Positions 12,675 through 54,075 of a stretch of DNA of 64,000 bases are shown piece after piece. Below the pieces are notes generated by a model. That model saw only the letters and a list, made by a program, of their open reading frames with translations. It did not search any database and had not been told where the DNA came from. Every line of letters begins with the position of its first letter. Within the stretch, counting starts at the first letter, position 1. The stretch comes from an uncultured Gammaproteobacteria bacterium (GTDB taxonomy: Bacteria > Patescibacteriota > Patescibacteriia > UBA9934): NCBI GenBank assembly GCA_964372415.1, contig CAYJQH010000003.1, forward strand, positions 24,923 through 88,922. Direction: 5' to 3'. The position numbers were made by a program, and so were the translations under genes.

Positions 12675-15600
12675 TTATAGTGCCACAGCTGTATTTGTCT
12701 CGCTAGATTCACTCTGGATAGAATTCGTAAGTGCTTCTCCCGTCTCTAGAGGAGCTGTTAATTCGGGATCCGGAGTTGTCACGTTGGGCTCACTAGTTGC
12801 CGATTGAGATTCGGAAGTTACTAACTCTGGTTCATTTGTTGTTAATTCGGTTTCGTTCTGTACTGTCTCAGAATCTGTGGGTATTACCTCGGTTACAAGT
12901 ACGTCTTGTGCCTCTTGGACCTCTGTGGGCTCTTGAGCGAGCGGCTCGAAGTCTTTGTGGTAGGCAATAACAAGCCAGTCTACAAGAACCCCGCTCGCCC
13001 CACCTTCAGCATGAATAGTAAAGCCACCGTTTGAGCGATCGGTTACGTAAATCTGACCGGTAATACCCGAGGGGGTAACAAGGACACGATATGATGACCC
13101 GGGTGAGATGACGTCGTTAAACTTAGGATCAATTTGTTCGAACGATACGTTCACAAGTCCATTAACGAGCGTCGCGGTTCCCGACAGTTGCACCGTAGTC
13201 TCGCGGCTTGCCACAGCATACGTTTCAACCCTTTCATTTTGGAATGAATTGACTATCTGAATCAGACGCCCCTGCGTTTCAAGATCGCCATTTTCGGAAA
13301 TTTTCCAGAGCCCGTTACCGGCCACGATTGATGACACCCCAAGAATACTCCCGCCATTCATGGCAAGTGAGCCCGAGATATTCAGATTTGAAACATTACT
13401 CGATAGGTTAGAGACGATATTTTCGGCCATCGGTGTTTCAGCGATACTGCCATTTCCATCAAAGTAAGACGGACGAATGAAAGCCACAATTTTCCCTTCG
13501 TTTGAGGTCATTTCAGCCATGGCATAACCAAGAATTGGGCCGGGTTCGGTAGCTTTCATAGCATAACCGGGACGAGTTGAGGTGGTGAGTGGGTCACCAA
13601 CCGCAACCGAGCCATTTTCGTTTGTCACAAAGGTCGGCACGCGGCCAGCCAAAGCCACCGGATAATCACCAACTCGATTTTCACCGGCTAAAAATCCAGG
13701 ACGTGTCGAAATCACGCCAGCAATGCGATCGCTATATGGCTCATCGCCGGATTTTTTAACTTGTTCTTGGCCATCGCCAAAAACCACTAATTCGCCCGGT
13801 TTGAGAGTCTCCTTAGAAGGGAACATTTCAGCAAAGTCGTATGAACCCGTTCCCCAACCGGCCGCGTTCGTTCTCATGTAACCGACACCCGTTGGATCGT
13901 AGAAAATATAAGCATTAGTTTGGGTAATTCCATTTCCGGAGGGATAAAATTTGCCGCTTAAAACAAAGTCTCCAGTTTGAGTGATCGCCCCTACCTCAAC
14001 ACCGGCATTGTTGGTCACTGCCAAACGCGAATCGGCTGGTCCGATAACCTTATTTACCAGCCCCATGGTTACCGTTTGCGCCGAACTTCCATCCCAGGCC
14101 GAGCCACGGAACGTCAAAGCATTTGAATCTTGTAGTGGATTTGCGGCAGTCGCCTGAGCCACGGCCGTAAGCGCTACTTCATCCATAAGGAGTGCAACTT
14201 GACCATCGGTACTCAACACCTGTCCGGCATACCACTGGGGCGACACGTGAATCTTAATCAGACCTTGACCGGCAGATATAGACTCCAAGGCAAAACCGAT
14301 GATTGACGACGGACCATTGGCCCGTCCGGCATAACCTGGAACGAATGAGGAAGCCGTCACCGCATCACCAATATTGATTGGCCCATCAGCGGCTGAGGTG
14401 TAGGTAGAAATTTGACCCTGAAGACCAACAATCCGGTAGTTAGGATTATCTTCAAGCGATCCATCAGCGCCAGGAATATTGTTACCCACAAATCCCGGGT
14501 TCGGTGAAACTACACCGACAACGTCCCTATTCCCCGCCTCGCAACGCTTGACCGAATTAGCATTCAAACGATCACGACAAACCACATAAGAATCCTGAAG
14601 CGTTGGATCGTTGCTTCTGAAAAATTCAGCGTAGTCAGCGCCCGCGTTGTAGGTTGCACCGTCACCAAAAATGTCGCCGTCGTTTTCAAAACGGAACTCG
14701 GCATCCGGCGTGCCATCAGCATCCGAAACGATGAGTATGACTTCGTCACCATTTTGAGCCTCGTTGACGTTAATCACTAGAGCCTGCGAGGTAGCTGCCG
14801 TCGTGGCATCGGCTACGACGTCTTGAGTGATAACCAAACTCGATGACGTGGCAGCGGTGCTATCGTTACGAATCGACATCACATTGACATCGAAAGCCGT
14901 ATTATCCTGAAAGACATGAGCTATCGGTTGGTTGGCGGTCGCGCCAAGGTTGGTGTAAACCGTAAGGCCAAAGTCGATGTTCCCAGTGTTATCTATATGC
15001 ACTGCTCCACCAAGGGTTGAACTAACCGTTGACCCGGTATTACCGGAAGGATCAACAAAAATTGAGGAAGCGGTTCCGGAGTTGGCCAAATTAATAACGC
15101 TCACGCTCAAGGTACCGCTTGTGCCGCTATCTGCGAGCGATAACAGCGTGTTTGTGCCATCGGTGACGCTGAGCGTTCCCGTGCCGGCAATTTCGATGGT
15201 TGGCGAGGTATCGGCAAATACCAAATCAGAATCCCAACCAGTGCCGATTTCGATTGCATTCTCATCAGAACCGGTAGCCGTGATGTTGGCAATATTCAAC
15301 GCTCTAAACGTATCACCACCATCCCCTGAAGGCGTGAGCGAAGAGACGTTTATAGCGTTGGCAACTTGGCCAGAAACAGCTGTCCCAACTGCTTCGAGCA
15401 CAATGTCGAGACCGTCAAAACTATTGAAGCTAGCAAACCCGGAGTTGGTGATGGCTAAAAGATCATTGTTGGTTCCCGGTGACGCGGCGGCCACCACCTG
15501 GAGGTTTGAGTTAGAATCAGCATTTACTACAACGTCTCCTGAACCATTAGGAACTAAGAACAACGTTTCGTTTGTTCCAGTTGTAATATCGTTTGAAACA

Positions 15601-18600
15601 CCGCTAAGGGTAAGTGTGCCATCAGTGGTAATTGCATCTAGGCTCGCCGCGCCAGTCGCCCCGATAGACCAATCATTACCCCCGGTAATAGTAATTACCG
15701 TTCCGGCGTTTGAGTTACCAATCGTCAGTGTATCGGCCGTGGTCGAATTGGTGGCAACATTGATAGTGTTGCCCAAATCGGTGGTAACGCCACCAATATC
15801 GAGTGTCGTAGAATTTCCGGACGCATCAAGCAGGTTAAAGGTCGCTGAGGTGGAGGTAAAATCACCACCATTTAATGCCAAGTCACCGGTTGTCGTAACA
15901 TCGCCACTTGAGCCAACCACGTCAAAGTTTGTGAAATCAATGTTTGCTGTAGTACCAAGAAAAATGTTGTCACCGATATTGAGCGCATTAGTAAGCTCAG
16001 CATCAGAAACATCGATACCGTCAGTGATGCCACCAGCAGATGCCTGAACAATAATACCGTCCACCATGAGTTCGTTGGTGTCAGAATTCGTAAACACGGC
16101 CAGCGAATCAGGAACACCGGTACCTCCCCCATCATTCGCATTCTGAATAATCATGATGTTGTTACTTCCGGTATCAGCCGCCGCTGTATCGGTAAAAGCT
16201 ACAACAAACGCATTCAGGCTAACATCTGTCCCGTGCGTAACATCAATATTGAAGTTCTCCGAGGCAGCGCCATCGGTGACAAAGGTGAAATCAACGTCAT
16301 CATTTATGGCAAGCGTACCGAAAGAAGCGGCACCAGCAGCGCTGATCGACCAGTTGGCATCGGCAAGCGACACATTATCTAGGGCGTCTCCGATCGTGAT
16401 TGTATCGGCATCGGCATTTGTACCGAGTGTCAAGGTGTCGCAAGACGCTGAGTTACACAGCGAAACGCTCGTGGCGTTGGTGTCGCCAAGGGTTAAGGCT
16501 CCTCCAGCGTTTGTATCAAGACCAACACCCGCCGCCACGGTGATGGCACCGGCAGAGGAAACATCAAAATTATCAAAATTAAGTGTACCGGTGGTACCGA
16601 GAATTTCGTTTGCGCCTACAGACAAGGCAGTTCCAATCTCGTCGTCGGAAGCGTTGAAAGCGGTGGTAAGAGACGCCCCAGGATCGATGCCAAAAGTAAT
16701 ACCGTTCGCGACTATTTCGTTAGTATCTGCTGATTCAAGAATGATAAAGCCATCAGGAGTGCCGGTGGCTCCGCCATCATTAGCGTTATGCAGAGCTATA
16801 AAATAATTTGCTCCCGTGTCGGCGGCGGCGGTATCGGTCATGAGCATCGTGAGCGGCGTCATACTGACATCCGTGGCGTGCGTTACGGTAATCGCTAAAT
16901 TTTCTGACTGCGCACCATCGGTTGTAAAATTGAAGTTCACGTTGTCGTTCGCTGTGAGATCGCCACCAAAAGTGGCCAGGCCGGCACCAGTAATCGACCA
17001 ATCATCACCGCCCGTAATGGCCACAGTCGTGGCCGCATTGCTGTTACCGACAGTTAAAACATCTGCCGTAGTTGAGTTCGTGGCGATATTCACTGTGTTG
17101 CCAAGGTCAGTCGTCACGCCGCCGAAATCAAGAGTTGTCGAAGCGCCAGCTGCGTCCTGAAAGTCGAACGTGGCAACTGACGACGTAGCTATGGACCCAT
17201 CGCGGTAGCGTGTTGAAGCACCGCCGGCAGTGAATCCGACATCAGATAAAAACTCACCCGAAGCCGTAATCCGAGCCTTGGTAGTATCGGCTGCCGTGCC
17301 GGAATTGGTGGTTTCATCTGTAATAAGTGTAAAAACGTCATTGTTGGTGTTCCCGTTATCAAAATCGATGAATAAGGCTTGGGCGGTGGCCGTAGCTGAA
17401 CTTGAGAACATTTCAACGATGTTGCCGGTAGCCGCCCCAGAAGCCGTGAACTGGAACATGTTATCCGACCAAGCGCTGCTGCTTCTAATGTTGGCAATTG
17501 AACCGCTCGTCAAAGCATTAGTATCAATATCAAGCAGGTTGCCTGTTGTCAGAGCCGTTGCATCAAGCATGAAAACCTCGCCCGAGGTAGCAGTCGTATT
17601 AGTAAAATCTAGTGTCGCGTCATCTTTAAAAGTAAAGAAAGTAGCACCACCATCTTGAACCACAAAATCTCCAGTCGAAGTCAGGTTCACGACAGTATTA
17701 GCCGAAGAACCGTTAGTAACGGTAAACGTCTCGGCCCCGTCGAGAGCGATTGAGGTTGAGGCATCGAGGTCTAATGCGTCTTCAAACGAGTCGAAATCAA
17801 GACAATCCGTACACACCAAATCGCTCACCGTCGCTACACCGGCTGTAGTAATACTCCAGTCGTCACCACCTGTAATGGCGATAGTCGAGGCAGCATTGGA
17901 GTTACCGATGGTGATAACGTCAGCAGTCGTGACATTCGTCGCGATGTTTATAGTGTTGCCGAGGTCTGTAGTGACGCCGCCAATGTCGAGAGTTGTCGAG
18001 TTAGCCGCTGCGTCAAGAAAATTGAAGGTGGCAGAAGTCGAAGTAAAATCACCGCCGTTCAGTGCCAAATCGCCGGCTGAAGTAATGTTCCCACTCGCTC
18101 CTAGGACATCAAAATTGGTGTAATCAATATTACCTGTGGTACCAGCCAAATCATTCGCGCCAACCGACAGAGCGGTTACTATTTCAGCATCACTTGCGTC
18201 AATCGCCGCGGTCAAAGCGCCGGCTGCTACATCAAATAAAATACCTGTGGCCACTGCCTCATTGGTATCCAAGTGGCGCAACCCCAGGAGCGCGTCGGGT
18301 GTGCCGGTCGCTCCCCCATCGTCCTCGTTGTCGATGTTGAGCAGGATTACCGTTCCCGTATCGGCTGCGGCTGTGTTAGTCGAATTCAAACTTATGACAG
18401 AAATCGAAGAATCTACAGCGTGTGTGTGATCGATGGTTAAATTTTCAGCTCCCACGCCACTTGTTGCCAAAGTAATGTCTAAATCACCACTGAGCGATAA
18501 GTCGTCGTTGGTACCAAGTTGAACAACACCTGAAGAATCAATGGTTAACGTGCCGTCACTTGTAATGTCATCGCCGTTAATTGCCAAGTCACCGGTTGCT

Positions 18601-19304
18601 ACAATATCGCCCTCCTTGTCGACGCGGAAAATTGAGGTGCCACCATCGGCTACACCAAAAATCGTGTCGTTCGCTGCCGAATCAACAGCCGCTGGATTGA
18701 TGTAAAGGGAACCAGCCGAAACACCGGAACCTGACGGGTTACCGGTCACGACCAAGTTACCAGATGAATTGTAAGCCACGATGGCCGCTGCCGTCGCGCC
18801 GTCGTTATCGGCGTCAAGACCATCGAGGGTTTCGGAATTCAAGGCGTATGGCGCGGCGACGATTTGTTTTCGCGGACTTAAAACCTCGCCAGCAACAGTT
18901 ACCTGAAGAAACAAGGCTGCGTTATCGGCAAAAATTGCATCACTGATTGCGGCATAAGGTGTGGCAGCAGCGGTATCACCCAAATTTTCTGAAAACAAAC
19001 CGTCGGTCAAAGTCACGGTCCGTGCGGTCGCCGAAGCACACGTTGCAGATGAGTTCGACCACACACAAGAACCGCCCGACGAGGCCGTGTAGAACTCAAA
19101 GATCATGCTGACCGAAGCGCTTGAAAGCGGTATACCGTTGGCATTCAATAATCGACCTTGATAAGTAATTATGTTGGGCGCTGAGGCGGCCTGAACGATC
19201 GGCGTCACTCCGCTCACAGGACCCAAAGCAAAAATACAAAGCGTCGCCAGCAGAAATCTGGCGACTTTTGTCGCGCTGAATTTAGACTTGAGATGCGTTG
19301 TCAT
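12675..19304 (-). CDS. Giant (~2,200 aa) secreted repetitive surface protein
   Basis: Signal peptide ([28 protein letters not shown]). N-terminal module [16 protein letters not shown]...[13 protein letters not shown] resembles modules of phage-tail-fibre-like bacterial proteins. About 1,400 aa of Thr/Ser/Gly/Asp/Asn-rich beta-repeat units ([23 protein letters not shown]..Tx[14 protein letters not shown] recurs at least 3 times). Duplicated ~150-aa C-terminal domain (...[14 protein letters not shown] / ...[14 protein letters not shown]). Acidic Thr/Glu tail. The longest ORF begins at 19424. The Met before the signal peptide at 19304 is preferred. Confidence 0.7.
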
Positions 19305-21777
19305 GAAGTTCGTCGAGCGTCCGATGAAGACCCACGTTGACGGTGAGTGGTGCCGGCTCTGCTTGAGTGGTAGTGATTGGTTTGATGATCTTTTCCACAA
19401 AACCGGGTTTACTAACACTCGCATAATACTCGTTCGGACCGAGCAAGAACGAATAACGCCCGAGACGATCTGTTAAGGTCGACTCGATAAGCTTATTATA
19501 CCGCGGTTCAAAGAGCCTTATGACGGCGTTGCTCACAGGTTTATGCGTATTTTTATCGTAAACAATTCCCCAGCCTTTTGGCTTCTTCTTGTATACTAGT
19601 TTAAGCACCAGTAACAGCACTATAAATTGAATTCCGAGCATTGCTCCTGCAGCCAGGCTCGGGGCGATGATCAAGACGACTATTGAGATTCCCAGTCCCG
19701 ATAAGCCAAAAACAAGCTGGATTGTTTTTAAAAGTCGTTCGACAGCTAATTTTCGAGGTGCGTGAAATTGGGGCGCGTCAGACGGATCAAGTGGAATATT
19801 GGCTGTAACATTGGTTTTTTGCTCCGATACCTCAATATCTTCACCATGATAAACATCAAGATATTGACCGTCCGTTTTGATTTCGGCCAAATATTTACTG
19901 GGAAAGTTAAAACCTGGCTTTATTACCTCAAGGCGATACCTTCCTGGTTCAGCAAATACATAGAATCGACCTTCAGGGCTAGTAACGGTCGACTTCACAA
20001 GTCGATGTTCCGGCATACGGAACACGCGAATAGTGGCTAGACCTATCGGCACTTTAGTTACCGCGTTGTAAACTCGGCCAAAAGGGCGGCGTCGTTTTTT
20101 ACCGAAAAGTAAAGCTGGCGAAGTAAAAATGTAAAAAATAAAAGGCAGTAAATTTGAAACCGTCGCGAGGAGGGCAAGCGATACCAAGGCGATTGCGGCA
20201 GCCAATGGAAGGCCTATTCTGGCGATTGCCTGGGCAAGGGGGGCGTCAAGAATGTTACGTAGAAAAGGTGGCTCGAAGGGCGTTTCATCTGGTGTGATTA
20301 TAGGCACTAAAAGACGCTCAAGACGAACGTTAATAGTTAGAATGTTGTTTGTCACATTAACCTCAAGAGCAACATCCTCATAACCCGATTTGCTAACTAT
20401 GACTCGATAAGGACCGTTCGGCGTATACCAACCAATTAAACCATCGTCACCTGTTAAAACCGGATTTTCCTGATTAAAAACAAAGGCTTCCCAGGCTACA
20501 CCTGGCCCTTCTGAAAGATCATAAACGGTAACCACAGCTCCGGAAACAGGTACTACTTCGTCGTCAATAATCTCGTAAACAAGGCCAGAATCAGCGATAT
20601 CAATAAACACTGTGGCAGTCGCTTCTGTGTCATCAGCAAAATGCACAATGGTTCCAAGGGCGTCGTCAGAAACTGGGACGGGCACCAAACCCGAAAACAC
20701 GTTCGGCTCTTTAGTCGGTGAGAGTACGTATTGATCGTCACCTAAGACTACAACCACGCTTGTCGCCGCATCTTCAGAGTGAACAATAACTTCAACCTCA
20801 GCATAGGTTCCAGGCAGGACCTCTACCCCACCGTCGGCATCATCAAGGCGAAAGTCGTCAACTGCAATAATATCAATCTCGACCCGCGGTTCATCTATTA
20901 ATTCATTATCCGTTTCCTCATCTTTGGGCCCGTCTGGTGATGGCGTTGGGGTCGTTTCTGGAAGAGGAACTGATGGTGGCTGTGGCTCGGGAGTTGGTTC
21001 GGGTTCAGGAATCGGCTCGGGAGTTGGTTCGGGTGTAGGTTCCGGTTCAGGCTCAGGAATTGGTGTAGGCTCTGGCTCGGGAGTTGGTTCGGGTGTAGGT
21101 TCCGGTTCAGGCTCAGGCTCAGGTTCTGGTTCAGGTGACGGGGGTGTCGGATTCGACCCTCCTCCGCCTCCCCCACCGCCTCCGCCTGATGATGTTACAA
21201 CCACGCTCACCGAGTCACTACCAGCGCTCGTGTAAGGAAGGGGTATTGAGCCATCATTGCCTGAGGTTCCACCAAGCGTCAGGTAGTAAGTGCCGGGAGT
21301 TGAAGGATTCGTAATTCTATTAGCGCCAGAACCCGATGCCGCGGCGTTCGTACCAATTTCAACTGTTACCACACTACCGTTAGCCATCGCTCCCCCGTCC
21401 CCGGCACAAATGGTCAGAGTGAGGGTACCTGATGACATAGCTACCGAGGCCTGTTCAGCCCCAGCACACGTTGCTGCAGTTGTTAAATCAACCCCATCAT
21501 CAGTAATGTCGACATCATCCTCAACAATCGAGCTCGTCGTAAAACTACTTGGAAAAACTAGAGTTATTGTTTCACCCTCCGCCCAGGCGTCGACAAGCGT
21601 AAAGGTAAATTTGTGATTTGCAGTTTGTGACGTAACAAGAGAAGTTGGCTGATCAGAAAGGCTATCAACCGCAAGCGCCATCACCCACACAGGAACAATT
21701 AAAAACATGCTGACTAGCACTAAAAGTGTGGTCAGCGACTGACTAAAACAACGCTGCGCCCTCCGCCCGTCGTTCAC
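19282..21777 (-). CDS. Secreted/polytopic protein with Gly run, Pro-Glu-Thr linker and two CarboxypepD_reg-like beta-sandwich domains flanked by TM segments
   Basis: Signal peptide. G11 run followed by [18 protein letters not shown]... linker. Two TM blocks and two paralogous domains ([20 protein letters not shown]... / [21 protein letters not shown]...). Confidence 0.6.
20940..21180. repeat. Tandem ~63-nt DNA repeats encoding the Pro-Glu-Pro-Thr linker
   Basis: ggctcgggagttggttcgggtgtaggttccggttcaggctcagg... recurs in tandem at about 21016-21141 with flanking degenerate copies. Confidence 0.6.
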
Positions 21778-23571: not shown

Positions 23572-23645
23572 CTTTTTGCCAATATTTACAGGCATAATCT
23601 GCTGAACACAATAAGTCGTCAACCGTCTGTTTAGCAAGCTTTTTT

Positions 23646-23654
23646 GTGGATAAC
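23646..23654. promoter_or_regulatory. Perfect DnaA box (TGTGGATAA) in the AT-rich region upstream of the surface operon
   Basis: Exact 9-mer match to the TTATCCACA complement. Near-matches follow (tgtccacac, taatccaca). Confidence 0.35.
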
Positions 23655-23927
23655 TTTTTAAAAATTTTTTAATTTAATTTGTCCACACTAGCGTAGACAA
23701 ATTCTTTTGCGTTCGTGAGTCGTAAAACATAAAATATTTTTCTTAAAATAGTTTGTTGCCCACATTTAATCCACAGTTTCACATAAAACGTCGCAGCTAA
23801 CGTTAGCATAATTTAAGCAATTAGCAGAAAACTATCAACAGAGTAACGTGGTCACAAACATAAACGTTATTTTTTTGACGATTTTGACGATAACAAATGA
23901 AAAAATCTCATTAAATTGATTAATACG

Positions 23928-23992
23928 AGGCGTGGGGTTGATTTTTTCGAGACGTACTTAATGGTACGCTAAGAAAAAATCGGGCCCCACAA
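23928..23992. repeat. Structured hairpin element, copy 1 of a 3-4 member family abutting tRNA genes
   Basis: Outer stem gtgggg/ccccac, a long stem gattttttc/gaaaaaatc, and inner hairpin cgagaCGTACttaatGGTACG. Related to 24221-24289 and 30478-30550 with compensatory changes. Confidence 0.4.
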
Positions 23993-24022
23993 CACAGTAG
24001 TAAGCAATTTAATCAGATTTTC

Positions 24023-24098
24023 TGGTGGACCTGAGCGGATTCGAACCGCTGACCTCCGCAATGCGAATGCGGCGCTCTACCAACTGAGCCACAGGCCC
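24023..24098 (-). tRNA. tRNA-Ala (anticodon CGC)
   Basis: 76-nt cloverleaf on the minus strand with G3:U70 Ala identity pair and anticodon loop TTCGCAT. T-loop GGTTCGAATCC. Encoded CCA. Confidence 0.85.
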
Positions 24099-24220
24099 GG
24101 GCTGGCTATTAGCTGCTAGCGATTAGCGAGCCATTAGCTTTTAGCAATTAACTAACCACACTGTTTCACATGAAGCGCGGTCCCATATAACCGTTGAAAT
24201 TGAATTAAATAACTTTTATA

Positions 24221-24289
24221 CAAGGCGCGGGAAGTCGAGGTTGAGGCGTAGTTAATACTACGGTGAGGCCGAGACAGGGACCCGCAACG
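24221..24289. repeat. Structured hairpin element, copy 2
   Basis: caaggcgcgggaagtcgaggttgaggCGTAGTtaatACTACGGTGAGGCCGAGacagggacccgc. Shares the 17-nt core ACTACGGTGAGGCCGAG with the copy at 30478-30550. Outer stem gcggg/cccgc. Confidence 0.45.
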
Positions 24290-24316
24290 AAGTATAAAAT
24301 TATTTAAATCGGTTTC

Positions 24317-24392
24317 TGGTGCCCCCACCCGGAGTTGAACCAGGATCAAGGGCTTAGGACGCCCCCGTTCTATCCAATTGAACTATGGGGAC
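24317..24392 (-). tRNA. tRNA-Arg (anticodon CCT)
   Basis: 76-nt cloverleaf on the minus strand. Anticodon loop GTCCTAA. T-arm CCTGG-TTCAACT-CCGGG. Encoded CCA. Confidence 0.75.
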
Positions 24393-24400
24393 AAAACACA

Positions 24401-24435
24401 CCCAAGTTTGGCCACCTTCGTCGTCGTTCGCTCCG
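24401..24435 (-). promoter_or_regulatory. Conserved ~35-nt leader block immediately 5' of tRNA-Arg(CCT)
   Basis: cccaagtttggccaccttcgtcgtcgttcgctccg matches ccaagtttggccatcttcgtcgtcgttcgctccg (30815-30848) 5' of tRNA-Arg(TCT). Weaker homology (cttactcg...ctag) extends about 60 nt further upstream in both copies. Confidence 0.4.
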
Positions 24436-24592
24436 CACGACATCAACGCAAATTTTTTACGCTTACTCGTGATCACTTACGCCTAGATTATGAGTCGTAA
24501 AACAATAATGTGATCTGTGTTATACTTTACAGTACGACCAGGCAGATTGTAATAAAAATTTACGAGCCGGTCAAAGAATAAAACAGTTGAAT

Positions 24593-25708
24593 ATGAGCAC
24601 GGAGCTTCTCGCGGTCATGGTGTCACTCGTTACTGCGATTCTCGTAGTACTAGTACTCATCAAAGTACGTCACACCTCTGCCCAAGTGTCGTCAAACGAT
24701 ACCATTCGTCATCTCTCAGAGCTCCGACAAGAACTTCAACGATTGCAACACGAGCATAGTCAGGAGATGCAGTCACAACTTACGCGAGTCAATGATCAGG
24801 TGTACCGGGGTTTAAGCGATTCCCAAAAGGCGATGCAGACGCAATTCGCTCACACCTCAAAAATTATTGAGGACATCACTCAAAAACTCACTACACTCGA
24901 TGCCACCAACAAACAAGTGCTGGATTTTTCCTCACAGCTTAAAAGTCTTCAAGACGTTCTCAAAAACCCAAAACAACGGGGAGTGCTAGGTGAGTATTGG
25001 CTCGAAACCCTGTTACAAAATATTTTGCCTCCAGCCTCGTACGCCATGCAGTATCGCCTTGGCAAACATGACACAACAAACAAAGATCTTATCGCTGATG
25101 CTGTAATCTTTGTTCGCGAGCTGATTGTGCCGATTGATGCCAAATTTAGTTTGGAAAATTACAATCGAGCAATCGGTGAACAGAATCCCGAAAGACGCGA
25201 AGAGCTTGAAAGGCAACTAAAAGCCGACGTAAAGATACGAATCGATGAAACATCAAAGTATATCCAACCACAACAGGGAACACTGGATTTTGCTTTCATG
25301 TTTATCCCCGCAGAAGGTGTTTATTACAATCTTTTGAACGCCGAGGTGGGCAGCGGAGTCAACAGTCAAAACTTGATTGAATACGCCTTCTCAAAAAAAG
25401 TAATGATCGTTTCTCCAACCTCACTTTTTGCATATCTACAAACCGTAATCTTGGGGTTAAATAATCTTCAAATCGAAAAAAACGCACAGGAAATTCAAAA
25501 AAATGTTGCAGAGCTTGGCAAGCATTTGCGTTCTTTTTTTGAATATCACAGTAAAGTGGGGAAGAATCTTGCAACGACAGTCAATCAATATAACGTCGCC
25601 TCAGGTGAATTTAAAAAAATCAGTAAGGACGTGGTAAGGATTACCGATGGCAATAAAGATGAAATTATCGAGATTGAGATTGTCGAAAAACCGACATTAA
25701 TTGAATAG
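24593..25708 (+). CDS. rmuC: DNA recombination protein RmuC
   Basis: N-terminal TM helix, long coiled coil, and C-terminal RmuC nuclease-like domain (DAVIFVRELIVPIDAKFSLENY...). ATG at 24593. The longest ORF begins TTG 24587. Confidence 0.8.
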   Translation: MSTELLAVMVSLVTAILVVLVLIKVRHTSAQVSSNDTIRHLSELRQELQRLQHEHSQEMQSQLTRVNDQVYRGLSDSQKAMQTQFAHTSKIIEDITQKLTTLDATNKQVLDFSSQLKSLQDVLKNPKQRGVLGEYWLETLLQNILPPASYAMQYRLGKHDTTNKDLIADAVIFVRELIVPIDAKFSLENYNRAIGEQNPERREELERQLKADVKIRIDETSKYIQPQQGTLDFAFMFIPAEGVYYNLLNAEVGSGVNSQNLIEYAFSKKVMIVSPTSLFAYLQTVILGLNNLQIEKNAQEIQKNVAELGKHLRSFFEYHSKVGKNLATTVNQYNVASGEFKKISKDVVRITDGNKDEIIEIEIVEKPTLIE

Positions 25709-25720
25709 GCGCAGAGATAA

Positions 25721-25757
25721 AAAAACGCCCCTTAGCATTTGTTCGGGGCGTTTTTTT
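25721..25757. terminator. Bidirectional intrinsic terminator between rmuC and rpsT
   Basis: aaaaaCGCCCCttagcatttgttcGGGGCGttttttt. Confidence 0.7.
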
Positions 25758-26022
25758 ACTTCGTTGCTTTGTTTAGACGAATGGCCGTGCGGCTTTTTAT
25801 ACGAGAGGCGGCATTTTTCTTAATAACTCCTTTAGTTACCGCTTTATCAAGAGTCTTGCCGAGGTCGCGGATAAGCGTTTTAGCTTCATCAAGCTTTTTA
25901 GCGTCGAGCAGTTTTCGGAAATTACGGCGCATGTAGGCAATGCTTTCATGTACCTTGATATTGCGCGCGGCTCTAACGTTACTTTGACGGAGAGCCTTTT
26001 TGGCATTTTGGAGAATTGGCAT
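25756..26022 (-). CDS. rpsT: 30S ribosomal protein S20
   Basis: 88-aa highly basic helical protein MPILQNAKKALRQSNVRAARN.. typical of S20. Confidence 0.9.
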   Translation of the reverse strand: MPILQNAKKALRQSNVRAARNIKVHESIAYMRRNFRKLLDAKKLDEAKTLIRDLGKTLDKAVTKGVIKKNAASRIKSRTAIRLNKATK

Positions 26023-26052
26023 AGCGTAATTGGCAATAAAGATAGCGCTAAC

Positions 26053-27027
26053 CTAGCGACGTGTCAAGATCGCAGCCACCAGGCGATCAACCGCCAGCTC
26101 AGGGGCCAAACCCGATTTTGCCGCTTTATCAAGGTCAAAAGCCAAGGCGTGGAGATCTAGTAGCTGCTCGCGTTGCCAACTGCGAGCCTCACCAAGAATC
26201 TTTTGCGCCACGTACGGATGCAGCCCAAGTGCCGTCGCGAGCTCGTTTTTGGTCACTCCAGCCTTACTGTCCATAACGTCCCGCGCCTCGAGAAGCAAAC
26301 GAATTTGCCTGACTAGCATACCGAATAGCTGGAACTCTCCGGTACCGGCACGCCGCTCATCAGATAATTTAGCCAGCGCTTTGGCATTACCCTTGGCGGA
26401 CAATGCATCAAGAAAAGCGAAAATGTTCTCCTCAACATCGCGTGCCACCAAGTCCTGAATCATCGCTTCATTCACTCCAGCGCCATTAGCGTAGGCGGCG
26501 AGCTTCTGCAGCTCGGCATCAAGTCGCCAAGTGTCGTAACTAACGCGTTCGGCCAGCTTGTTAAGTAGTGCTGGGGAGATAACTACTCCCTGAAGGCGCG
26601 TGCGTTCTGCCGCCCAGGAACTGAAGGCGCTTCCTTCGAGGGGAAGAAGAGGGTAAACATGAACATCTGGAGCGGCTGTGATAATTTTGTAAACTTCTTG
26701 CTTTACAAATTTTGCAGATTCGACGATTTCGACAAAAATCGCAATCGTTGAGCTTGGCACTGACAATAAAATTTCTTTCCACAGGGCGGCATCAGCCTTT
26801 TTAAGGCCCGAAAGGAGCCCCCGCACCACCACCATTCTTTTTTCCGCCAGAAATGGCGAGGACTGCAGAGCGCCAGTAACCATTCCTCGCTCGGTTTGTC
26901 CGTTTTCATAAGAAAAATCATCCAAATTCATGCCGGTTGGATCAAATTTCTCTTTAAATTTAAGCTTCATGTCGGCGACTCGTTCCTTAACCCGCAATGC
27001 ATCGCTGCCATAAATTAGAATCAACAT
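26053..27027 (-). CDS. holA: DNA polymerase III delta subunit
   Basis: 324-aa clamp-loader delta-like sequence (MLILIYGSDALRVKERV..., AAA+-like fold without a P-loop, C-terminal helical domain). Confidence 0.75.
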   Translation of the reverse strand: MLILIYGSDALRVKERVADMKLKFKEKFDPTGMNLDDFSYENGQTERGMVTGALQSSPFLAEKRMVVVRGLLSGLKKADAALWKEILLSVPSSTIAIFVEIVESAKFVKQEVYKIITAAPDVHVYPLLPLEGSAFSSWAAERTRLQGVVISPALLNKLAERVSYDTWRLDAELQKLAAYANGAGVNEAMIQDLVARDVEENIFAFLDALSAKGNAKALAKLSDERRAGTGEFQLFGMLVRQIRLLLEARDVMDSKAGVTKNELATALGLHPYVAQKILGEARSWQREQLLDLHALAFDLDKAAKSGLAPELAVDRLVAAILTRR

Positions 27028-27126
27028 AGCTTATGTATGTTACGGGGTATCGCTTGGCATAACAAGACAATATTGAGTACTGTAGTATCTGGCAATACTC
27101 GAGATTCTACCCGCCCAGGGGGCACA

Positions 27127-27690
27127 ATGAACCTCCATCCCATCATTTTGGTTCTTGGACCAACGGCCGTCGGCAAAAGAAGCATTCTCGAGCATGCTCT
27201 AGAACACAAGCCACGGCTGAAAGTGATACCAACCTTTACGACGCGTGCGCCACGCGAGGAGGAGAAAAAAGAATCGCTCTGGTACAAATTCGTCAGTCGA
27301 AAAGTCGCCAAGCGTCTCATCGAAAGCGGCCAAGCCATCAACTGGATCGAAGATGATGGAGATTGTTACGGCCAGGCGAAAGACGATATCGACCACGTGT
27401 TAAGGAACTACCTGGGAGTCCTCATCGTGAGCGAAGCGGCGATTGTAAATTTTAGGCGCGCCCACTATCGAGTGGTGACCGTAAACGTCACCGCCGAAGG
27501 GCAGCCCGAGCTCACTCGGGATCGTACCCCCTGCGAGGAGAAAGGACTTCGACAGGGAAGCGTGCGTTACGATCACAACATCATCAACGTCTTCGACCCG
27601 CAAGAACCCGGGGCCCACTTCGAGTGCGCGGTCCAAGAGTTCTGCAGCATTGTGCGCAAAAACATCATGCGCCACAGCCTCCCATCCTAG
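27127..27690 (+). CDS. Guanylate kinase-like P-loop protein (divergent)
   Basis: P-loop LGPTAVGKRS and FTTRAPREEE (compare Gmk TTRxPRxGE). The rest is divergent. Confidence 0.5.
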   Translation: MNLHPIILVLGPTAVGKRSILEHALEHKPRLKVIPTFTTRAPREEEKKESLWYKFVSRKVAKRLIESGQAINWIEDDGDCYGQAKDDIDHVLRNYLGVLIVSEAAIVNFRRAHYRVVTVNVTAEGQPELTRDRTPCEEKGLRQGSVRYDHNIINVFDPQEPGAHFECAVQEFCSIVRKNIMRHSLPS

Positions 27691-27710
27691 TGATGGGATT
27701 TAATTTTTAG

Positions 27711-30452
27711 TTATTTCATCTCTCCCCAACGTTTTGCGGAGACTATATCAACCACCAAGGGAACCGAAAGATCGATCACCGAACTCATAATCTTCGGAAC
27801 TTCTCGTTTTACCTTTGCTACATCCTTTTCCTTTACCTCAAAGACCAGCTCGTCATGTACCTGGAGAAGCATTGCGCCATCAATTTTTTCTTTCTTTATC
27901 CAATCGTCAATCAAAATCATTGCTTTTTTTAAAATATCAGCTTGTGTGCCCTGGACAGGCATATTAATAGCCATGCGTTCAGCAGCCGCAACGAGCTGGG
28001 GAACTCCAGAATTGATGTCCGGAAGGTAACGACGTCGGCCAAAGAGGGTTTCAACATATCCGTCAGTTCGAGCCTTGAGCTTCATGGCATCCATGTAAGC
28101 GCGAAGTGGTTCGTGGACCTCAAAATAACGCTCAATAAACTGTCGCGCTTCTTCAAATGGCATTTTCGTGGCACGAGCGAGTGATCGAGCACCAACGCCA
28201 TAGAGGATGCTGAAGTTAATTGCCTTAGCAGCGGCGCGTTGATCCTTTGTAACTTTGTCTTCTGGCACGCCCCAAACGTCGGCTGCCGTGCGACGGTGAA
28301 TATCGGCGCCGTCTTTAAAGGCCTGGATAAAGACCTTATCTTGAGCAATGTGAGCAGCCAAGCGCAGTTCGATTTGCGAGTAGTCGGCTGAGACAAGTTC
28401 GAATCCTTTTTCAGCCACAAAGGCATTACGAATTTCGCGCCCGAGGTCAGAACGAATGGGCAGGTTCTGCAAATTTGGATTAATTGACGACAAACGACCT
28501 GTGGCGGCAATCGTTTGATTGAAGGTTGTGTGAATGCGACCGTCAGAGGCGACAAGAGAGGGTAGAGGATCAGCGTAGGTTGACTTCAATTTAGCAATTT
28601 CTCGGTATTCTTCGATGAACTCAATGACTGGGTGCGCTTCAGCAAGCTTTTCGAGCTCAGGAGCGGCTGTCGAGAAACTATTTTTTGTCTTCTTAATGCC
28701 CTTTGTTGGGAGTCCGAGCTTCGTAAATAGAACCTCAGCCAGCTGAGAGGGAGAATTGATGTTAAATTCTTTGCCCGCAGCTTTGTAGATTTTCTTCGTC
28801 AGGATATCGAGGCTTTTGGCAAAGCTTTCCGAAAGTGTGCTGAGCTTCTTTTTATCAACGAGGATCCCTTTATGCTCCATGCTAAACAATACGGGGATGA
28901 GCGGCAGCTCAATTTTCTCGTAAAGTTCAGTCATTTTGTCTTTTTCCAGGCGCTCATTGAGCTTATCGGCCAAGCTTAAGATGAGTGGCGCCTGCTCAGC
29001 CGGGGACTCCGGGAGTGTCTGGTGAGCCCCGAGAACGTCGCTCACGACCGCCCCAAGATCGTATTCGCGATTGCCAGGTGAAATAAGGTATGAGGCAATC
29101 ATCGTGTCCTCGAACTTGATCTTACAAAGATCATCGGCACACTCCGCGTTGAGCGTGGCGAGGGCATGCATCGCTGCTTTGGCGTCGTGTGCGACAACAG
29201 AACGGCTCTTCGTGAGAAATTCGATGACGGGTTGAGCCGTTTTCTTGTCAGGGTGCTCAAGCAGGAAGGTGTTCGTGCCGTCGGAGACCGCGATGGCAGT
29301 AATATTGCCACCAAAAAGATCTCGCGACTTACTCACGACAACAAGGGAACAGCGTCGGGGGAGAATGTCGTCAAGCTTTTCAGCAAAAGCCGTCTTGGTT
29401 TTCTTCTTTTCCCTCACCTTCGTTCGGGACAAGCTTTCCTCTTTACTCTTTCCTCCTTCCTCTTCGGGCTTGGCTTCGTATTTTTTGAGCAACGCCTTAA
29501 ATTCGAGCTCTCGGAACAGGGAGACGAGATCTTTGACATGCGGCTCGCGAGTTGCCGCAAGCTTCATGTCGAACTCCTTAAGCGGAACATCACGAACAAT
29601 CGTCACGAGCTTTCGCATCTGAGCTGCATGCGCTTCCTGGCCGGTAAACTTTTTGACGAATTTTTCAGGCAACGACCCTTTTTTCAAGGCTTTAAAAATC
29701 TCCTCGACCGATCCGTAGTTAGCAAGAAGCTCAGCCGCTCCTTTTTCACCGATTCCTGGGACTCCTGGCAGGTTATCCGAGGTATCGCCAACCAGCGTTT
29801 TGAGCTCAATAAGTTGCTTTGGTGAAAGGTTGTAGCGTTCTTTGATAGCGGCTTCGTCGTAAATCTTTACTTCTGAGAGTCCGCGCACAAAAAAGACCAC
29901 CTTTGTGTCTGGACTCACAAGCTGCAGCGTATCGAGATCGCCGGTGACGATGATGGTATCGATATTGCCGTGTTTTTCATTCTTGGTAGCAACTGTACCG
30001 ATGATGTCATCAGCCTCGTATCCCTTAGCCGAGAGGGAAGGGATGCCATAGGCCGTCAAAATATTTTGGATAATTGGAATCTGAGCGTAAAGTTCATCGG
30101 CTTTTTTCTCACGCGTTGCCTTGTACTCTTTGTAATCGTCATGACGAAAGGTTGGCCCAGCTAAATCCCAGGCTACCACCATGTAGTCAGGCTTAAACGT
30201 TGCTCGCATCTTCTCGACGACGTTAGTAAAACCGTATGCCGCATTGACGACGAGCCCGCTCTTCGTGGTAAGGGGAGGGATTGCATGCCAAGCACGATGC
30301 AACAATGCATTTCCGTCTAAAACAATGTATCTTTTTTGATCAGGCATAGTTGCTGGCATTGTACTTGGACAGTTGCAATATTCCAATTTTTCTGCTACAT
30401 TACCTCGGCAAAACTTGTTGTTTTCGCTATACATGCAGGCAGTAATAAACAC
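27711..30452 (-). CDS. polA: DNA polymerase I
   Basis: 913 aa. N-terminal 5'-3' exonuclease (YIVLDGNALLHRAWHA...), central 3'-5' exo-like domain, C-terminal family A polymerase (..LLQVHDELVFEV..). Confidence 0.9.
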   Translation of the reverse strand: MFITACMYSENNKFCRGNVAEKLEYCNCPSTMPATMPDQKRYIVLDGNALLHRAWHAIPPLTTKSGLVVNAAYGFTNVVEKMRATFKPDYMVVAWDLAGPTFRHDDYKEYKATREKKADELYAQIPIIQNILTAYGIPSLSAKGYEADDIIGTVATKNEKHGNIDTIIVTGDLDTLQLVSPDTKVVFFVRGLSEVKIYDEAAIKERYNLSPKQLIELKTLVGDTSDNLPGVPGIGEKGAAELLANYGSVEEIFKALKKGSLPEKFVKKFTGQEAHAAQMRKLVTIVRDVPLKEFDMKLAATREPHVKDLVSLFRELEFKALLKKYEAKPEEEGGKSKEESLSRTKVREKKKTKTAFAEKLDDILPRRCSLVVVSKSRDLFGGNITAIAVSDGTNTFLLEHPDKKTAQPVIEFLTKSRSVVAHDAKAAMHALATLNAECADDLCKIKFEDTMIASYLISPGNREYDLGAVVSDVLGAHQTLPESPAEQAPLILSLADKLNERLEKDKMTELYEKIELPLIPVLFSMEHKGILVDKKKLSTLSESFAKSLDILTKKIYKAAGKEFNINSPSQLAEVLFTKLGLPTKGIKKTKNSFSTAAPELEKLAEAHPVIEFIEEYREIAKLKSTYADPLPSLVASDGRIHTTFNQTIAATGRLSSINPNLQNLPIRSDLGREIRNAFVAEKGFELVSADYSQIELRLAAHIAQDKVFIQAFKDGADIHRRTAADVWGVPEDKVTKDQRAAAKAINFSILYGVGARSLARATKMPFEEARQFIERYFEVHEPLRAYMDAMKLKARTDGYVETLFGRRRYLPDINSGVPQLVAAAERMAINMPVQGTQADILKKAMILIDDWIKKEKIDGAMLLQVHDELVFEVKEKDVAKVKREVPKIMSSVIDLSVPLVVDIVSAKRWGEMK

Positions 30453-30477
30453 GCGAGCGTATTAAAATGGCGAAATG

Positions 30478-30550
30478 CAAGGAATGTGGAAGACGGGGCC
30501 GAGACGTAGTAGAACTACGGTGAGGCCGAGTCGGCCCCATGACGCAGCAG
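30478..30550. repeat. Structured hairpin element, copy 3, immediately left of tRNA-His
   Basis: caaggaatgtggaagacGGGGCCGAgaCGTAGTagaACTACGGTGAGGCCGAGTCGGCCCCatgacg. Outer stem ggggccga/tcggcccc. Inner hairpin and 17-nt core identical to the copy at 24221-24289. Confidence 0.45.
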
Positions 30551-30578
30551 ATCGAAATTTTAATAGCAAGCGGTACAT

Positions 30579-30653
30579 GGCGGCTATAGCTCAATGGTAG
30601 AGCACCGGGTTGTGGTCCCGGCTACACGGGTTCGATCCCCGTTAGTCGCCCCA
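30579..30653 (+). tRNA. tRNA-His (anticodon GTG) with encoded G-1
   Basis: Extra 5' G pairing with C73 discriminator. Anticodon loop TTGTGGT. T-loop GGTTCGATCC. Encoded CCA. Confidence 0.85.
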
Positions 30654-30655
30654 GA

Positions 30656-30686
30656 AGAAACTCCCGAGCACGGGAGTTTTTTCTTT
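30656..30686. terminator. Bidirectional intrinsic terminator shared by convergent tRNA-His and tRNA-Arg(TCT)
   Basis: gaaACTCCCGagcaCGGGAGTtttttcttt. Confidence 0.65.
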
Positions 30687-30722
30687 GCAACATAAAACCC
30701 TCGCTTTCGCGAGAGTTGTATG

Positions 30723-30799
30723 TGGTACCCCGGGCAGGAATCGAACCTGCGACCTTGAGCTTAGAAGTCTCCTGCTCTATCCAACTGAGCTACCGGGGC
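30723..30799 (-). tRNA. tRNA-Arg (anticodon TCT); anticodon stem has two non-canonical pairs
   Basis: 77-nt cloverleaf on the minus strand. Good acceptor, D and T arms (GCAGG-TTCGATT-CCTGC). Anticodon loop CTTCTAA. The anticodon stem GGAGA/GCTCA forms only 3 Watson-Crick pairs. Confidence 0.65.
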
Positions 30800-30814
30800 G
30801 TACTGAAAACCTAT

Positions 30815-30848
30815 CCAAGTTTGGCCATCTTCGTCGTCGTTCGCTCCG
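30815..30848 (-). promoter_or_regulatory. Conserved leader block 5' of tRNA-Arg(TCT), paralogous to 24401-24435
   Basis: 34 of 35 nt identical to the block upstream of tRNA-Arg(CCT). Confidence 0.4.
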
Positions 30849-30913
30849 TCGGACTCACCGTACTTGTAAGTACGCCTCGTCCTTACTCGCTCACTCCTAG
30901 AATCTGACCAAAC

Positions 30914-30942
30914 TTAATAGGTTTTCTCATAAATTTGAGCAA
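30914..30942 (-). promoter_or_regulatory. Candidate sigma-70 promoter for tRNA-Arg(TCT): -35 TTGCTC, 17-nt spacer, -10 TATTAA
   Basis: Minus-strand read TTGCTCaaatttatgagaaaaccTATTAAg. Predicts a ~100-nt leader containing the conserved block. Confidence 0.4.
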
Positions 30943-30986
30943 ACAAGATACCAAATTTTTTACAAAAAATCAAGTCTAGTGTCGAA

Positions 30987-43658: not shown

Positions 43659-44510
43659 ATGCTTTTTGGCGCACACGTTTCGGCAGCCGGGGGAGTGTGG
43701 AATGCTCCCGCTCACGGCAAGTTTTTGGGGTGTGAAATTATCCAATTCTTTACTCGGCCACCTCATAGTTTTGCGGCCAAGCCGATTACCGACAGTGATG
43801 CGGAAAAATTCAAAACGTCGATGAAAGAAAATGGCATCAAGAGCGCCTACGTTCACGCCCCGTACCTTATTAACCTCGCCTCAGCGAACAATAAAGTTCG
43901 TTTTGGCTCGATCAAAATGCTTCGCGACGAACTTGAACGTTGCTCAAAGCTCGGCATCAAAGCCATGATGTTCCATCCGGGCTCCGCCAAGGATGTGGGG
44001 CAAGAAAAAGGTGTTGAACTTGTTGTCGACGGCCTCAACCGCATCATGGATGGTTATGACGGGAGCTGTCAGTTCTTAATTGAGATCTCCGCAGGTGCCG
44101 GGGCTGTCATGGGTGACACTTTTGAGGAGCTTGCCCTGTTCTTAGACGGCGCAGAACGGGGAAAAGAGATCGGCATTTGCTTCGATACGCAGCATGCCTT
44201 CGCTTCTGGTTACGATCTTCGTAAAAAAGAAGATGTCGAGGCGACATTTAAGGCTTTTGACCAAGCAGTCGGCCTCAAAAAGCTCGTCGCCAGCCACTGC
44301 AATGACTCTAAAGTCGAATTCAACGCCCACAAAGATCGCCACGAACACTTAGGCCAAGGCCACATTGGCCAAGATGGCTTCAAACACATCGTCAATCACA
44401 AAAAACTTTCGCACATCGATCTCATTTTAGAGACGCCGTACGAAAAAGAGGGTCAAAAAGACGACCCTCGTATTCCAGATCTCGAACTCTTGAAGTCATT
44501 CCGTAAATAA
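43659..44510 (+). CDS. nfo: Endonuclease IV (AP endonuclease family 2)
   Basis: TIM-barrel Nfo motifs (MLFGAHVSAAGG; HAPYLINLAS; FHPGS; HCNDSK...). Start at Met 43659 within the longer ORF. Confidence 0.85.
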   Translation: MLFGAHVSAAGGVWNAPAHGKFLGCEIIQFFTRPPHSFAAKPITDSDAEKFKTSMKENGIKSAYVHAPYLINLASANNKVRFGSIKMLRDELERCSKLGIKAMMFHPGSAKDVGQEKGVELVVDGLNRIMDGYDGSCQFLIEISAGAGAVMGDTFEELALFLDGAERGKEIGICFDTQHAFASGYDLRKKEDVEATFKAFDQAVGLKKLVASHCNDSKVEFNAHKDRHEHLGQGHIGQDGFKHIVNHKKLSHIDLILETPYEKEGQKDDPRIPDLELLKSFRK

Positions 44511-53872: not shown

Positions 53873-53998
53873 CAAAAACCTCAGTATTCGTGACGAGTTT
53901 GGGCGAACGGGTGAATTTCTCCAAGGCGACCTATGAAGGTCGGTGAGGAGAAATTCGGGTCCCGTAAGACCAAAATCGGCCGAATAATGAGGTTTTCA

Positions 53999-54075
53999 TG
54001 GAGGCCACGACCAGGATTGAACTGGTGTATAGCGGTTTTGCAGACCGCCGCGTTAACCAACTTCGCCACGTGGCC
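53999..54075 (-). tRNA. tRNA-Cys (anticodon GCA)
   Basis: 77-nt cloverleaf on the minus strand. Anticodon arm GCGGT-CTGCAAA-ACCGC. T-arm ACCAG-TTCAATC-CTGGT. U73 discriminator. Encoded CCA. Confidence 0.8.

Follow-up and report, generated by a model that had tools for sequence, protein, structure and literature searches.

Structured hairpin modules beside stable-RNA genes form a clade-specific family in Uhrbacteria-like Patescibacteria

Structured elements at the borders of bacterial genes are known from several systems. The processing stems of pre-tRNAs and pre-rRNAs pair the 5' flank of the mature RNA with its 3' flank. Palindromic repeats of the ERIC/IRU and REPIN/BIME type occur in many similar copies per genome, have conserved termini and are not tied to tRNA ends, and intrinsic terminators consist of a short G+C-rich stem, a loop of 3-8 nucleotides (nt) and at least five U residues. 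In phage T7, the RNase III signals of the R1.1 type are hairpins with a conserved internal loop between helices, at which polycistronic RNA is processed. Bacteria of the candidate phyla radiation have tiny genomes and few known regulators, and to our knowledge almost nothing is known about the synthesis and processing of their stable RNAs. Here we describe a family of hairpin elements that adjoin tRNA genes in a 64-kb stretch of DNA of an uncultured member of the Patescibacteria (contig CAYJQH010000003.1 of assembly GCA_964372415.1; this whole stretch is called the window) and in its relatives. The host genome is covered by the window and the relatives by short flanks, which are numbered L001 onward. 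These elements constitute a genuine and undescribed family that is specific to one clade, and their anatomy, the selection on folding, the position, the polarity and the strand-specific folding could be established. With a probability of about 55% we regard them as lineage-specific, rod-shaped modules of about 125 nt that are built into stable-RNA transcription units and act in cis.

Each full copy folds as a single rod-shaped hairpin of 115-130 nt with z values from -5.2 to -9.6. At its base, GAAAAC pairs with GUUUUC; this base belongs to an outer stem, which is A+T-rich, frequently contains UUUAAA and reaches to within a few bases of the tRNA. The outer stem is followed by an asymmetric loop with (U/A)AGGAG on the 5' side opposite CGA-CRACG on the 3' side, by one or two variable stems carrying purine mismatches, and by a symmetric loop in which GAGR faces NNGA, giving tandem G.A plus a G.U or G-C pair. 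The apical stem CGUA/UACG is invariant and palindromic and closes a variable loop. The unpaired AGGAG, GAGR, NNGA and CGA-C are conserved. Copies were collected with iterated covariance models, the E-values of which are rough due to a shortened calibration. Model R1 was seeded by alignment A1 of the four plus-strand copies of the window (E1-E4), and model R2 was derived from alignment A4; a MAFFT alignment of seven copies, in which the outer helices of L001 and L002 were misaligned, was not used for the models. A4 and R2 include one spurious partial match at window positions 43878-43907 on the minus strand (GCCAAAACGAAC...GTTCGCTGAGGC, 20-25 bits), which lies within a coding region and is probably a chance resemblance to the element core. 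Among 45 matches comprising 37 distinct sequences, standard pairs were found in 88.7% of the cells, and 20 of the 23 pairs had changed on both sides (178 cells). None of 500 shuffles attained the observed pairing or covariation values, and when the partner was slid by 1-3 columns, only 28-39% of the cells paired and the covariation score fell from 0.50 to about 0.06. The alignment behind these counts was fitted to the model, which favors structure, but the effect is nonetheless very large. The structure is thus under selection, as had been proposed from three copies, and the covariation holds across all 37 distinct sequences. With Rfam 15, the whole window yielded only its six tRNAs at the gathering threshold, and in sensitive scans of 23600-24600 and 30440-30960, extended up to E = 10, no credible hit overlapped the elements. 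The Rfam comparison that had been suggested as a check therefore assigns them to no family, and literature searches found no description of such elements.

The window contains six copies, two of them on the minus strand. A copy that faces the 5' end of a tRNA gene and lies on the tRNA strand is called A-type, and a copy that faces the 3' end and lies on the opposite strand is called B-type. Five of the six tRNA genes, which were called with ARAGORN in the window and at all loci (Rfam being used for additional stable-RNA genes), are accompanied by an element, tRNA-Arg(CCT) on both of its sides. E1 (23902..24021, plus strand) is a full B-type rod hairpin (-47.3 kcal/mol, z -9.6; 87-95 bits with the covariance models), the 3' end of which abuts the CCA end of tRNA-Ala(CGC) (24023..24098, minus strand; 71.3 bits with the Rfam tRNA model), its sense strand being opposite to that of the tRNA. 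Orthologous copies are located beside tRNA-Ala in L002 and L005, the latter with the same apical hairpin. E2 (24200..24312, plus strand), likewise a full B-type hairpin (-41 kcal/mol, z -6.5; 72-80 bits), abuts the CCA end of tRNA-Arg(CCT) (24317..24392, minus strand) and has orthologous copies in L001 and L002. The other side of this gene is occupied by E6 (about 24393..24505, minus strand; 22.5 bits, E 0.009), a degenerate A-type copy in the position of a 5' leader, which has lost the 5' outer arm and the apical core and no longer folds as a single hairpin. The 3' arms of E6 and E5 are 91% identical, and the two copies share the 43-nt direct repeat D6 (24393-24435 and 30806-30848). E3 (30457..30567, plus strand; -45.1 kcal/mol, z -5.7; 74-82 bits) is a full A-type hairpin directly 5' of tRNA-His(GTG) (30580..30653, plus strand), on the same strand. 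E5 (30805..30926, minus strand; 73.6 bits with R2), also a full A-type hairpin, is found directly 5' of tRNA-Arg(TCT) (30723..30799, minus strand). R1, which did not have E5 in its seed, found it at 30824-30908 with 42 bits and an E-value of 1.4e-10, and copies of other species were recovered with E-values down to 2e-12, so that the proposed covariance-model search succeeded far beyond chance with sequences unseen by the model. E4 (53875..53996, plus strand; -61.6 kcal/mol, z -8.6; 67-82 bits), a full B-type hairpin, abuts the CCA end of tRNA-Cys(GCA) (53999..54075, minus strand); it was part of the model seed, yet its architecture matches that of the independent L006 copy.

The first-pass annotation of the window had listed three copies of 65-75 nt at 23928-23992, 24221-24289 and 30478-30550. 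These segments are enclosed by E1, E2 and E3, respectively, and represent the inner part of the rod hairpins, to which the long A+T-rich outer stem has to be added; the minus-strand copies E5 and E6 had been missed. The described stems gcggg/cccgc, ggggccga/tcggcccc, gtgggg/ccccac and cgtagt..actacg are present, the 17-mer ACTACGGTGAGGCCGAG is identical in 24257-24273 and 30514-30530, and the two closest copies, said to be about 70% identical, share 71% of their positions. Homology favors GGCC/GGCC plus GAC/GUC in E3 over the 8-bp stem ggggccga/tcggcccc. The C-G to G-C swap in the inner stem of the 23928 copy exists at the fifth pair, but the stem reads cgtact/ggtacg and not agtacg, the sixth pair being a U.G wobble. 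The sequence GGTGAGGCCGAG, given as a common feature, occurs in two of the three copies, whereas the first one has GCTAAGAAAAAA. The neighbor of tRNA-Cys had been taken for a possible degenerate relative; a relative it is, but as the full member E4.

In the relatives, 49 copies were found with the covariance model and one metagenome scan. The scan pattern covered the element core only and contained no tRNA sequence; it yielded 35 copies in 26 loci. The Hainich H41 groundwater assemblies were the source of many copies. About 45 of the 49 copies have a stable-RNA gene 17-43 nt, mostly 17-25 nt, past the 3' end of the model match, namely 42 annotated tRNAs, the 3' end of a 23S rRNA, a tRNA truncated where its contig stops and the remnant of a decayed tRNA. 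It is invariably the 3' end of the element that points to the gene, and in no copy is the 5' end the sole gene-facing end. When the NCCA bases are counted, the element is separated from the acceptor stem by about 21-25 nt at either side. A-type copies (21, at no fewer than 12 tRNA species) end 19-25 nt before the tRNA in 18 cases and 31 or 43 nt before it in the other three, and the base of their hairpin is located about 3-11 nt, typically about 5 nt, ahead of tRNA position +1. B-type copies number about 15. The association with tRNA genes that had been noticed at first is therefore real and very tight. Each copy reported at that time is indeed located left of its tRNA, but the actual rule is a mirror polarity that applies to either side of the gene and to either strand. 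Spacers separating co-oriented tRNAs frequently contain a B copy followed by an A copy in a back-to-back arrangement, and in L107 the element itself is the spacer of two co-oriented tRNAs. Furthermore, L097 (9864-10404) has a copy in the 23S-5S spacer, with its 3' end toward the 23S 3' end at a distance of 28 nt, and the family is therefore not limited to tRNA genes. The B-type copy of L108 (10829-10960) precedes TGGAG and a stretch similar to the antisense of the 3' half of tRNA-Gly; this looks like a decayed tRNA gene that has retained its flank. Two candidate explanations of the paired arrangement were discarded: the A and B copies of E6/E2, of L104 (A/B1) and of L085 (A/B) have no common stem sequences that could form a leader-trailer processing stem, and neither ARAGORN nor Rfam detected an antisense "mirror tRNA" on the strand opposite to B-flanked tRNAs.

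The homologs of the RmuC encoded in the window are nearly all from Patescibacteria, with Candidatus Uhrbacteria as the nearest named group. The contigs of L001 and L002 are syntenic around RmuC, which is 77 and 67% identical, respectively. The element is present beside tRNA-Ala and tRNA-Arg(CCT) in the window as well as in L001, L002, and L005, and the stems at these orthologous sites differ yet stay paired, with a conserved G.U changed to G-C in L002. GAGA is kept in the Ala copies and GAGG in the Arg copies. Altogether, the same tRNA carries the element across species with an RmuC identity of 58-77%. Judged by these orthologous positions with compensated stems, the element appears ancient and not recently mobile. 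Among 80 further Patescibacteria loci, matches were obtained only in the nearest ones, L004-L007 and L046, whereas about 75 more distant loci gave no covariance-model match; the family is confined to one Uhrbacteria-like clade of Patescibacteria. In L003, L004 and L007 the element is absent beside the same tRNAs, where other hairpins are found, and long but unrelated hairpins accompany tRNAs in some distant lineages. L007 (8300-8950) carries an unrelated repeat of about 130 nt that abuts the CCA end of both tRNA-Ala and tRNA-Arg(CCT) and ends in the hairpin CCATGAACC-CTAC-GTGGTTCATGG, which is an analogous solution with a different sequence. L046 (9775-9965) contains two inverted elements facing each other upstream of RmuC, with about 17 nt and no tRNA between them. 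Relatives have tRNA-Arg(CCT) at this position, which suggests that the tRNA was lost from between its flanks. This pair together with a lone copy in L004 indicates that the elements can outlive their tRNA.

The dispersed, palindromic and intergenic nature of the element, its patchy occurrence in the clade (lacking in L003, L004 and L007) and the copies without tRNA in L004 and L046 could also be expected of a selfish repeat of the MITE, REPIN or ERIC kind, inserted beside tRNA genes without a function for the host. The tRNA-Arg(CCT) copy of L001 is moreover closer to E5 than to its positional counterpart E2. However, identity between copies of the same genome is only 53-71%, and their outer stems are unrelated. 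The copies are flanked by inverted, mutually pairing A and U runs, and no target-site duplication stood out in the flanks that were read, although no dedicated search was made. No transposase or RAYT gene is adjacent to the elements in the window according to Pfam (run on the ten element-flanking proteins among about 49 long open reading frames), and the neighboring tyrosine recombinase is a conserved syntenic Xer-like chromosomal gene that is also present in L004. Orthologous positions with compensatory changes extend down to 58% RmuC identity. By the divergence of the copies, their outer stems and these positions, the REP/MITE-like character considered in the first-pass annotation is disfavored, and a selfish repeat is a very unlikely explanation.

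The two types differ in their strand preference. The A copies fold better in the sense orientation by a mean of 15.5 kcal/mol and contain 52 G.U pairs, compared to 6 on the opposite strand. Most of them were gathered by a scan pattern that fixed part of the core sequence, and the conservation of the core in A copies is therefore inflated. With the outer stems alone, which makes the test independent of the scan pattern and of the purine/G.A core, the sense strand was better in 18 of 19 copies (p = 2e-4). For E3, sense folding is better than antisense folding by 10.9 kcal/mol, and for E5 the values are -56.7 and -36.5 kcal/mol, with three and zero G.U pairs, respectively. Sigma-70-like promoter sites, here and throughout consensus matches only, of the form TTGxxx-17-TAxxxT have their -10 box ending 24-45 nt before the start of the model match in 10 of the 20 A copies scanned, and three more A copies have such sites 68-96 nt upstream. 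From the closer sites, transcription is predicted to start a few bases ahead of the hairpin base. The same applies to TTGATT-17-TATCTT (30945..30973, minus strand; promoter scan and sequence reading) just upstream of E5, with a predicted start about 10 nt ahead of the base. TTGACC-17-TACAAT (24546..24574, minus strand; 10 of 12 consensus positions) upstream of E6 implies a leader of about 147 nt for tRNA-Arg(CCT). The weaker TTGCAA-17-TACATT upstream of E3 (30373..30401, plus strand; promoter scan) is uncertain because it is located inside the longest polA open reading frame. The strand, the upstream position, the promoter-like sites and the sense-strand folding thus clearly let the A copies read as structured 5' leaders of pre-tRNAs that are selected as folded RNA. 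We infer that they are transcribed and released by RNase P. The copy at tRNA-His, previously termed a 5' flank, has this position, but would be a leader of the transcript rather than a mere flank. A promoter within the tRNA-proximal arm (-35 CGACAA, -10 in the A+T stem) was rejected, since E5 and L083 offer no acceptable -10 box at the required distance and good promoter-like sites are found upstream of the hairpins instead, and no small open reading frame follows the AGGAG box at a usable spacing. The three bases before tRNA position +1 are very frequently UAC, e.g., CAGUAC|G, CCUUAC|G or CUGUAC|G, as seen in the A-type copies of L083, L091, L093, L086, L089, L092 and L102 and in the window at 30800-30806, which may reflect a preference of leaders in this clade at the RNase P site.

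A leader of this kind might also be the functional product itself, i.e., an abundant and stable small RNA that is co-transcribed with tRNAs, released by RNase P and acts in trans, for example by titrating an RNA-binding protein or the ribosome via the Shine-Dalgarno-like AGGAG, GAGG and GGUGA together with the tandem G.A. The predicted start a few bases before the hairpin base and the high stability of the hairpin agree with such a role. Nearly the whole sequence, including the outer stems, is common to the leaders of many different tRNAs (E5, L083, L091, L093, L095, L099 and L102), and the unpaired purines AGGAG, GAGUAA and GGA are conserved outside the scan pattern. However, B copies lack a consistent promoter and would not yield such an RNA, yet they keep the motifs. 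For the copies facing tRNA 3' ends, the independent small RNA that had been among the suggested roles is thus not supported. A trans-acting RNA, which we consider unlikely, would be compatible with an additional role in cis.

For the B copies, the difference between sense and antisense folding is 6.9 kcal/mol, and 34 G.U pairs face 19 on the other strand. Their outer stems alone fold better as sense in 10 of 15 copies (p = 0.14), i.e., there is no strand preference, and the same promoter scan gave no pattern comparable to that of the A copies, so that B copies would not be transcribed on their own. The tRNA strand carries the reverse complement of a B copy, which has identical helices but pyrimidine-rich instead of purine-rich loops, and U-rich runs follow on this strand in several copies, e.g., E1, E4, L001, L002a, L005 and L104. 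B copies are probably 3'-trailer or terminator hairpins. This raises the question whether the elements are ordinary bidirectional intrinsic terminators that are merely long. A and U runs flank the hairpin (GAAAAC...GUUUUC), and B copies are located between the tRNA and the next co-oriented gene. However, the U run adjoins an A+T-rich stem, comprises only about 4 nt and takes part in pairing. Terminator scanning was negative at E1, E2 and E4, while it detected the simple terminators that belong to tRNA-Arg(TCT) and to the gene located upstream of E4. A copies are located between promoter and tRNA and therefore cannot terminate efficiently, one copy sits within an rRNA operon spacer, and internal loops conserved across species are not needed for termination. 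Ordinary terminators are hence a highly improbable explanation. The convergent genes for tRNA-His and tRNA-Arg(TCT) have one short canonical terminator hairpin each, back to back between them (30655-30720): CTCCCG-AGCA-CGGGAG plus a T run for tRNA-His (about 30661-30683, plus strand; sequence reading) and a simple terminator-like hairpin downstream of tRNA-Arg(TCT) (30696..30717, minus strand; consensus scan). These two tRNAs are the ones in the window with an A-type leader only, and they have simple terminators instead of a B-type copy.

According to the cis-acting role that we favor, the transcript of an A-type element would form the 5' leader of the pre-tRNA, adopt its fold in the sense orientation and presumably be freed by RNase P, whereas at a B-type site the tRNA transcript would carry the reverse complement of the element as a 3' trailer hairpin. 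In both cases the module is assumed to act in cis on the precursor. As a self-contained, long double-stranded flank it could insulate a highly transcribed stable-RNA gene from its neighbors, and at 3' ends the trailer hairpin might be combined with a weak or bidirectional terminator ahead of the next gene. It may further serve as an entry point close to the mature ends for a double-strand-specific nuclease such as RNase III, or as a docking site for a clade-specific factor recognizing the conserved G.A loops and the CGUA/UACG stem. The "structured terminator/processing signal" among the roles named in the first-pass annotation comes close to this explanation.

Several observations weigh against it. 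None of E1, E2 and E4 was picked up by the terminator scan, the U content past the hairpin shows no clear difference between A and B copies, and the B-type copy in the 23S-5S spacer cannot be a terminator because the 5S gene follows. The terminator part of the mechanism is weak for these reasons. Moreover, the B copies keep the unpaired purines AGG, GAG, GA and CGA-C of the A copies, although these are on the non-tRNA strand. A purely RNA-level role in cis fails to explain this conservation together with the mirror polarity, and both remain unexplained by the favored mechanism. They fit better with a reader that acts at the DNA level or is specific for single strands than with a simple trailer.

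The elements might accordingly be polar elements at the DNA level, of which the hairpin, a cruciform or the conserved boxes in duplex form bind a protein or are encountered by a translocating machine. The mirror arrangement would then be a barrier or marker, or would represent inverted recombination sites by which tRNA genes are inverted, lost or moved as cassettes. The polarity is indeed mirror-symmetric about the gene and independent of the strand, with the same acceptor-stem spacing on both sides, and B copies conserve the bases of the A copies on the non-tRNA strand without an RNA strand preference. As DNA, both the invariant CGTA...TACG stem and the TTTAAA boxes are palindromes, the inverted pair of L046 encloses no tRNA, and the order and orientation of tRNA-His and tRNA-Arg(TCT) vary among close relatives. 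However, the strand-specific RNA signature of the A copies (52 versus 6 G.U pairs; sense better in 18 of 19) would not arise from a duplex-DNA site, and outer stems that are wholly different yet complementary point to single-strand folding and not to sequence recognition. We regard a DNA-level element as improbable. Unlikely as well is a polar "boundary module", a hairpin of conserved structure that would be oriented by the gene and not by transcription, and that would be read by a clade-specific factor on both flanks. Such a factor would read single-stranded nucleic acid or a cruciform, and may dock the machinery for pre-tRNA and pre-rRNA maturation, block approaching machines, or permit tRNA genes to be inverted or exchanged as cassettes between inverted copies.

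The window has a G+C content of about 48% and encodes, besides the six tRNA genes, RmuC, holA, gmk, polA and the Xer-like recombinase. Some further features were observed. A palindrome-like motif, (T)GT-CGTAAA-AC(A), is located about 20 nt upstream of a TATACT -10 box before RmuC, a DNA-recombination gene, in the window and in five relatives, and a second copy is found upstream of the neighboring minus-strand gene (window 24492-24506 and 23718-23732; L001 about 5945 and 6996; L002 about 9915; L004 about 9880; L005 about 9838; L007 about 9047). It looks like the putative operator of a conserved regulator. Upstream of tRNA-Ala, window 24105-24160 contains five TTAGC pentamers (attagc tgc tagc gattagc ... 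attagc ttttagc). The open reading frame 19282-21777 (minus strand) includes a tandem repeat with a 12-nt period at 20972-21141, consisting of 11 overlapping units of the GGYTCNGG type, which probably encodes a low-complexity linker, and the adjacent open reading frame of 2249 amino acids (12675-19424, minus strand) has internal repeats of 216 nt and 50 nt.

One module of about 125 nt is thus found on most of the tRNA genes examined (five of six in the window) and on an rRNA spacer. If it directs processing, insulation or the binding of a factor, it would be a clade-wide feature of tRNA biogenesis without a described counterpart, as well as a new Rfam RNA family and an annotation marker for these genomes. 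The mirror polarity and the purine loops on the non-transcribed side are not predicted by the standard models of leaders, trailers, terminators or mobile repeats, and therefore constitute a concrete and testable puzzle.

Compared with known systems, the element has only partial counterparts. An integron attC site is excluded by sequence reading, since there is no complementary GTTRRRY/RYYYAAC pair, the base is GAAAAC/GUUUUC and the copies are dispersed and do not form an array. Compared by eye, neither the sarcin-ricin/loop E nor the tetraloop-receptor motif fits. For a kink-turn the fit is doubtful: tandem G.A is present and conserved (GAGR versus NNGA), but in a symmetric 4x4 loop without the 3-nt bulge. 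With ERIC/IRU and REPIN/BIME it shares a size of about 120-130 nt, the imperfect palindrome and the intergenic location; those repeats are frequently part of transcripts and can affect RNA stability or termination. In contrast to them, the element is highly diverged, with compensated stems, fixed orthologous tRNA flanks and strict polarity and spacing, and the six copies in 64 kb are not the many near-identical copies with conserved termini of a REP, REPIN or MITE family. Intrinsic terminators are likewise hairpins with an A run and a U run and, as for the B copies, are located downstream of tRNAs. The element is, however, five to ten times longer and A+T-rich at its base, in place of the short G+C-rich stem; its internal loops are conserved, its U run is short and paired, and it also occurs between promoter and tRNA. 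The T7 RNase III signals resemble it in their conserved internal loop between two helices but are about 60 nt long, not mirrored and without sequence similarity to it. The helix of about 20 bp of near-continuous double-stranded RNA that RNase III requires is provided by the predicted outer stems. By strand, by upstream position and by their location downstream of promoter-like sites, the A copies correspond to putative pre-tRNA 5' leaders. The closest likeness is to the structured flanks of pre-tRNAs and pre-rRNAs, which also adjoin the mature ends, are co-transcribed (as is presumably the case for the A copies) and comprise 20 bp or more of near-perfect double-stranded RNA; the copy in the 23S-5S spacer is in line with this. 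We know of no described family of such tRNA-flanking hairpins. Unlike the known processing stems, which join both flanks, the elements are self-contained hairpins that are usually present on one side only, and one sequence family serves many tRNAs, mirrored on the two sides of the gene and with conserved purine loops.

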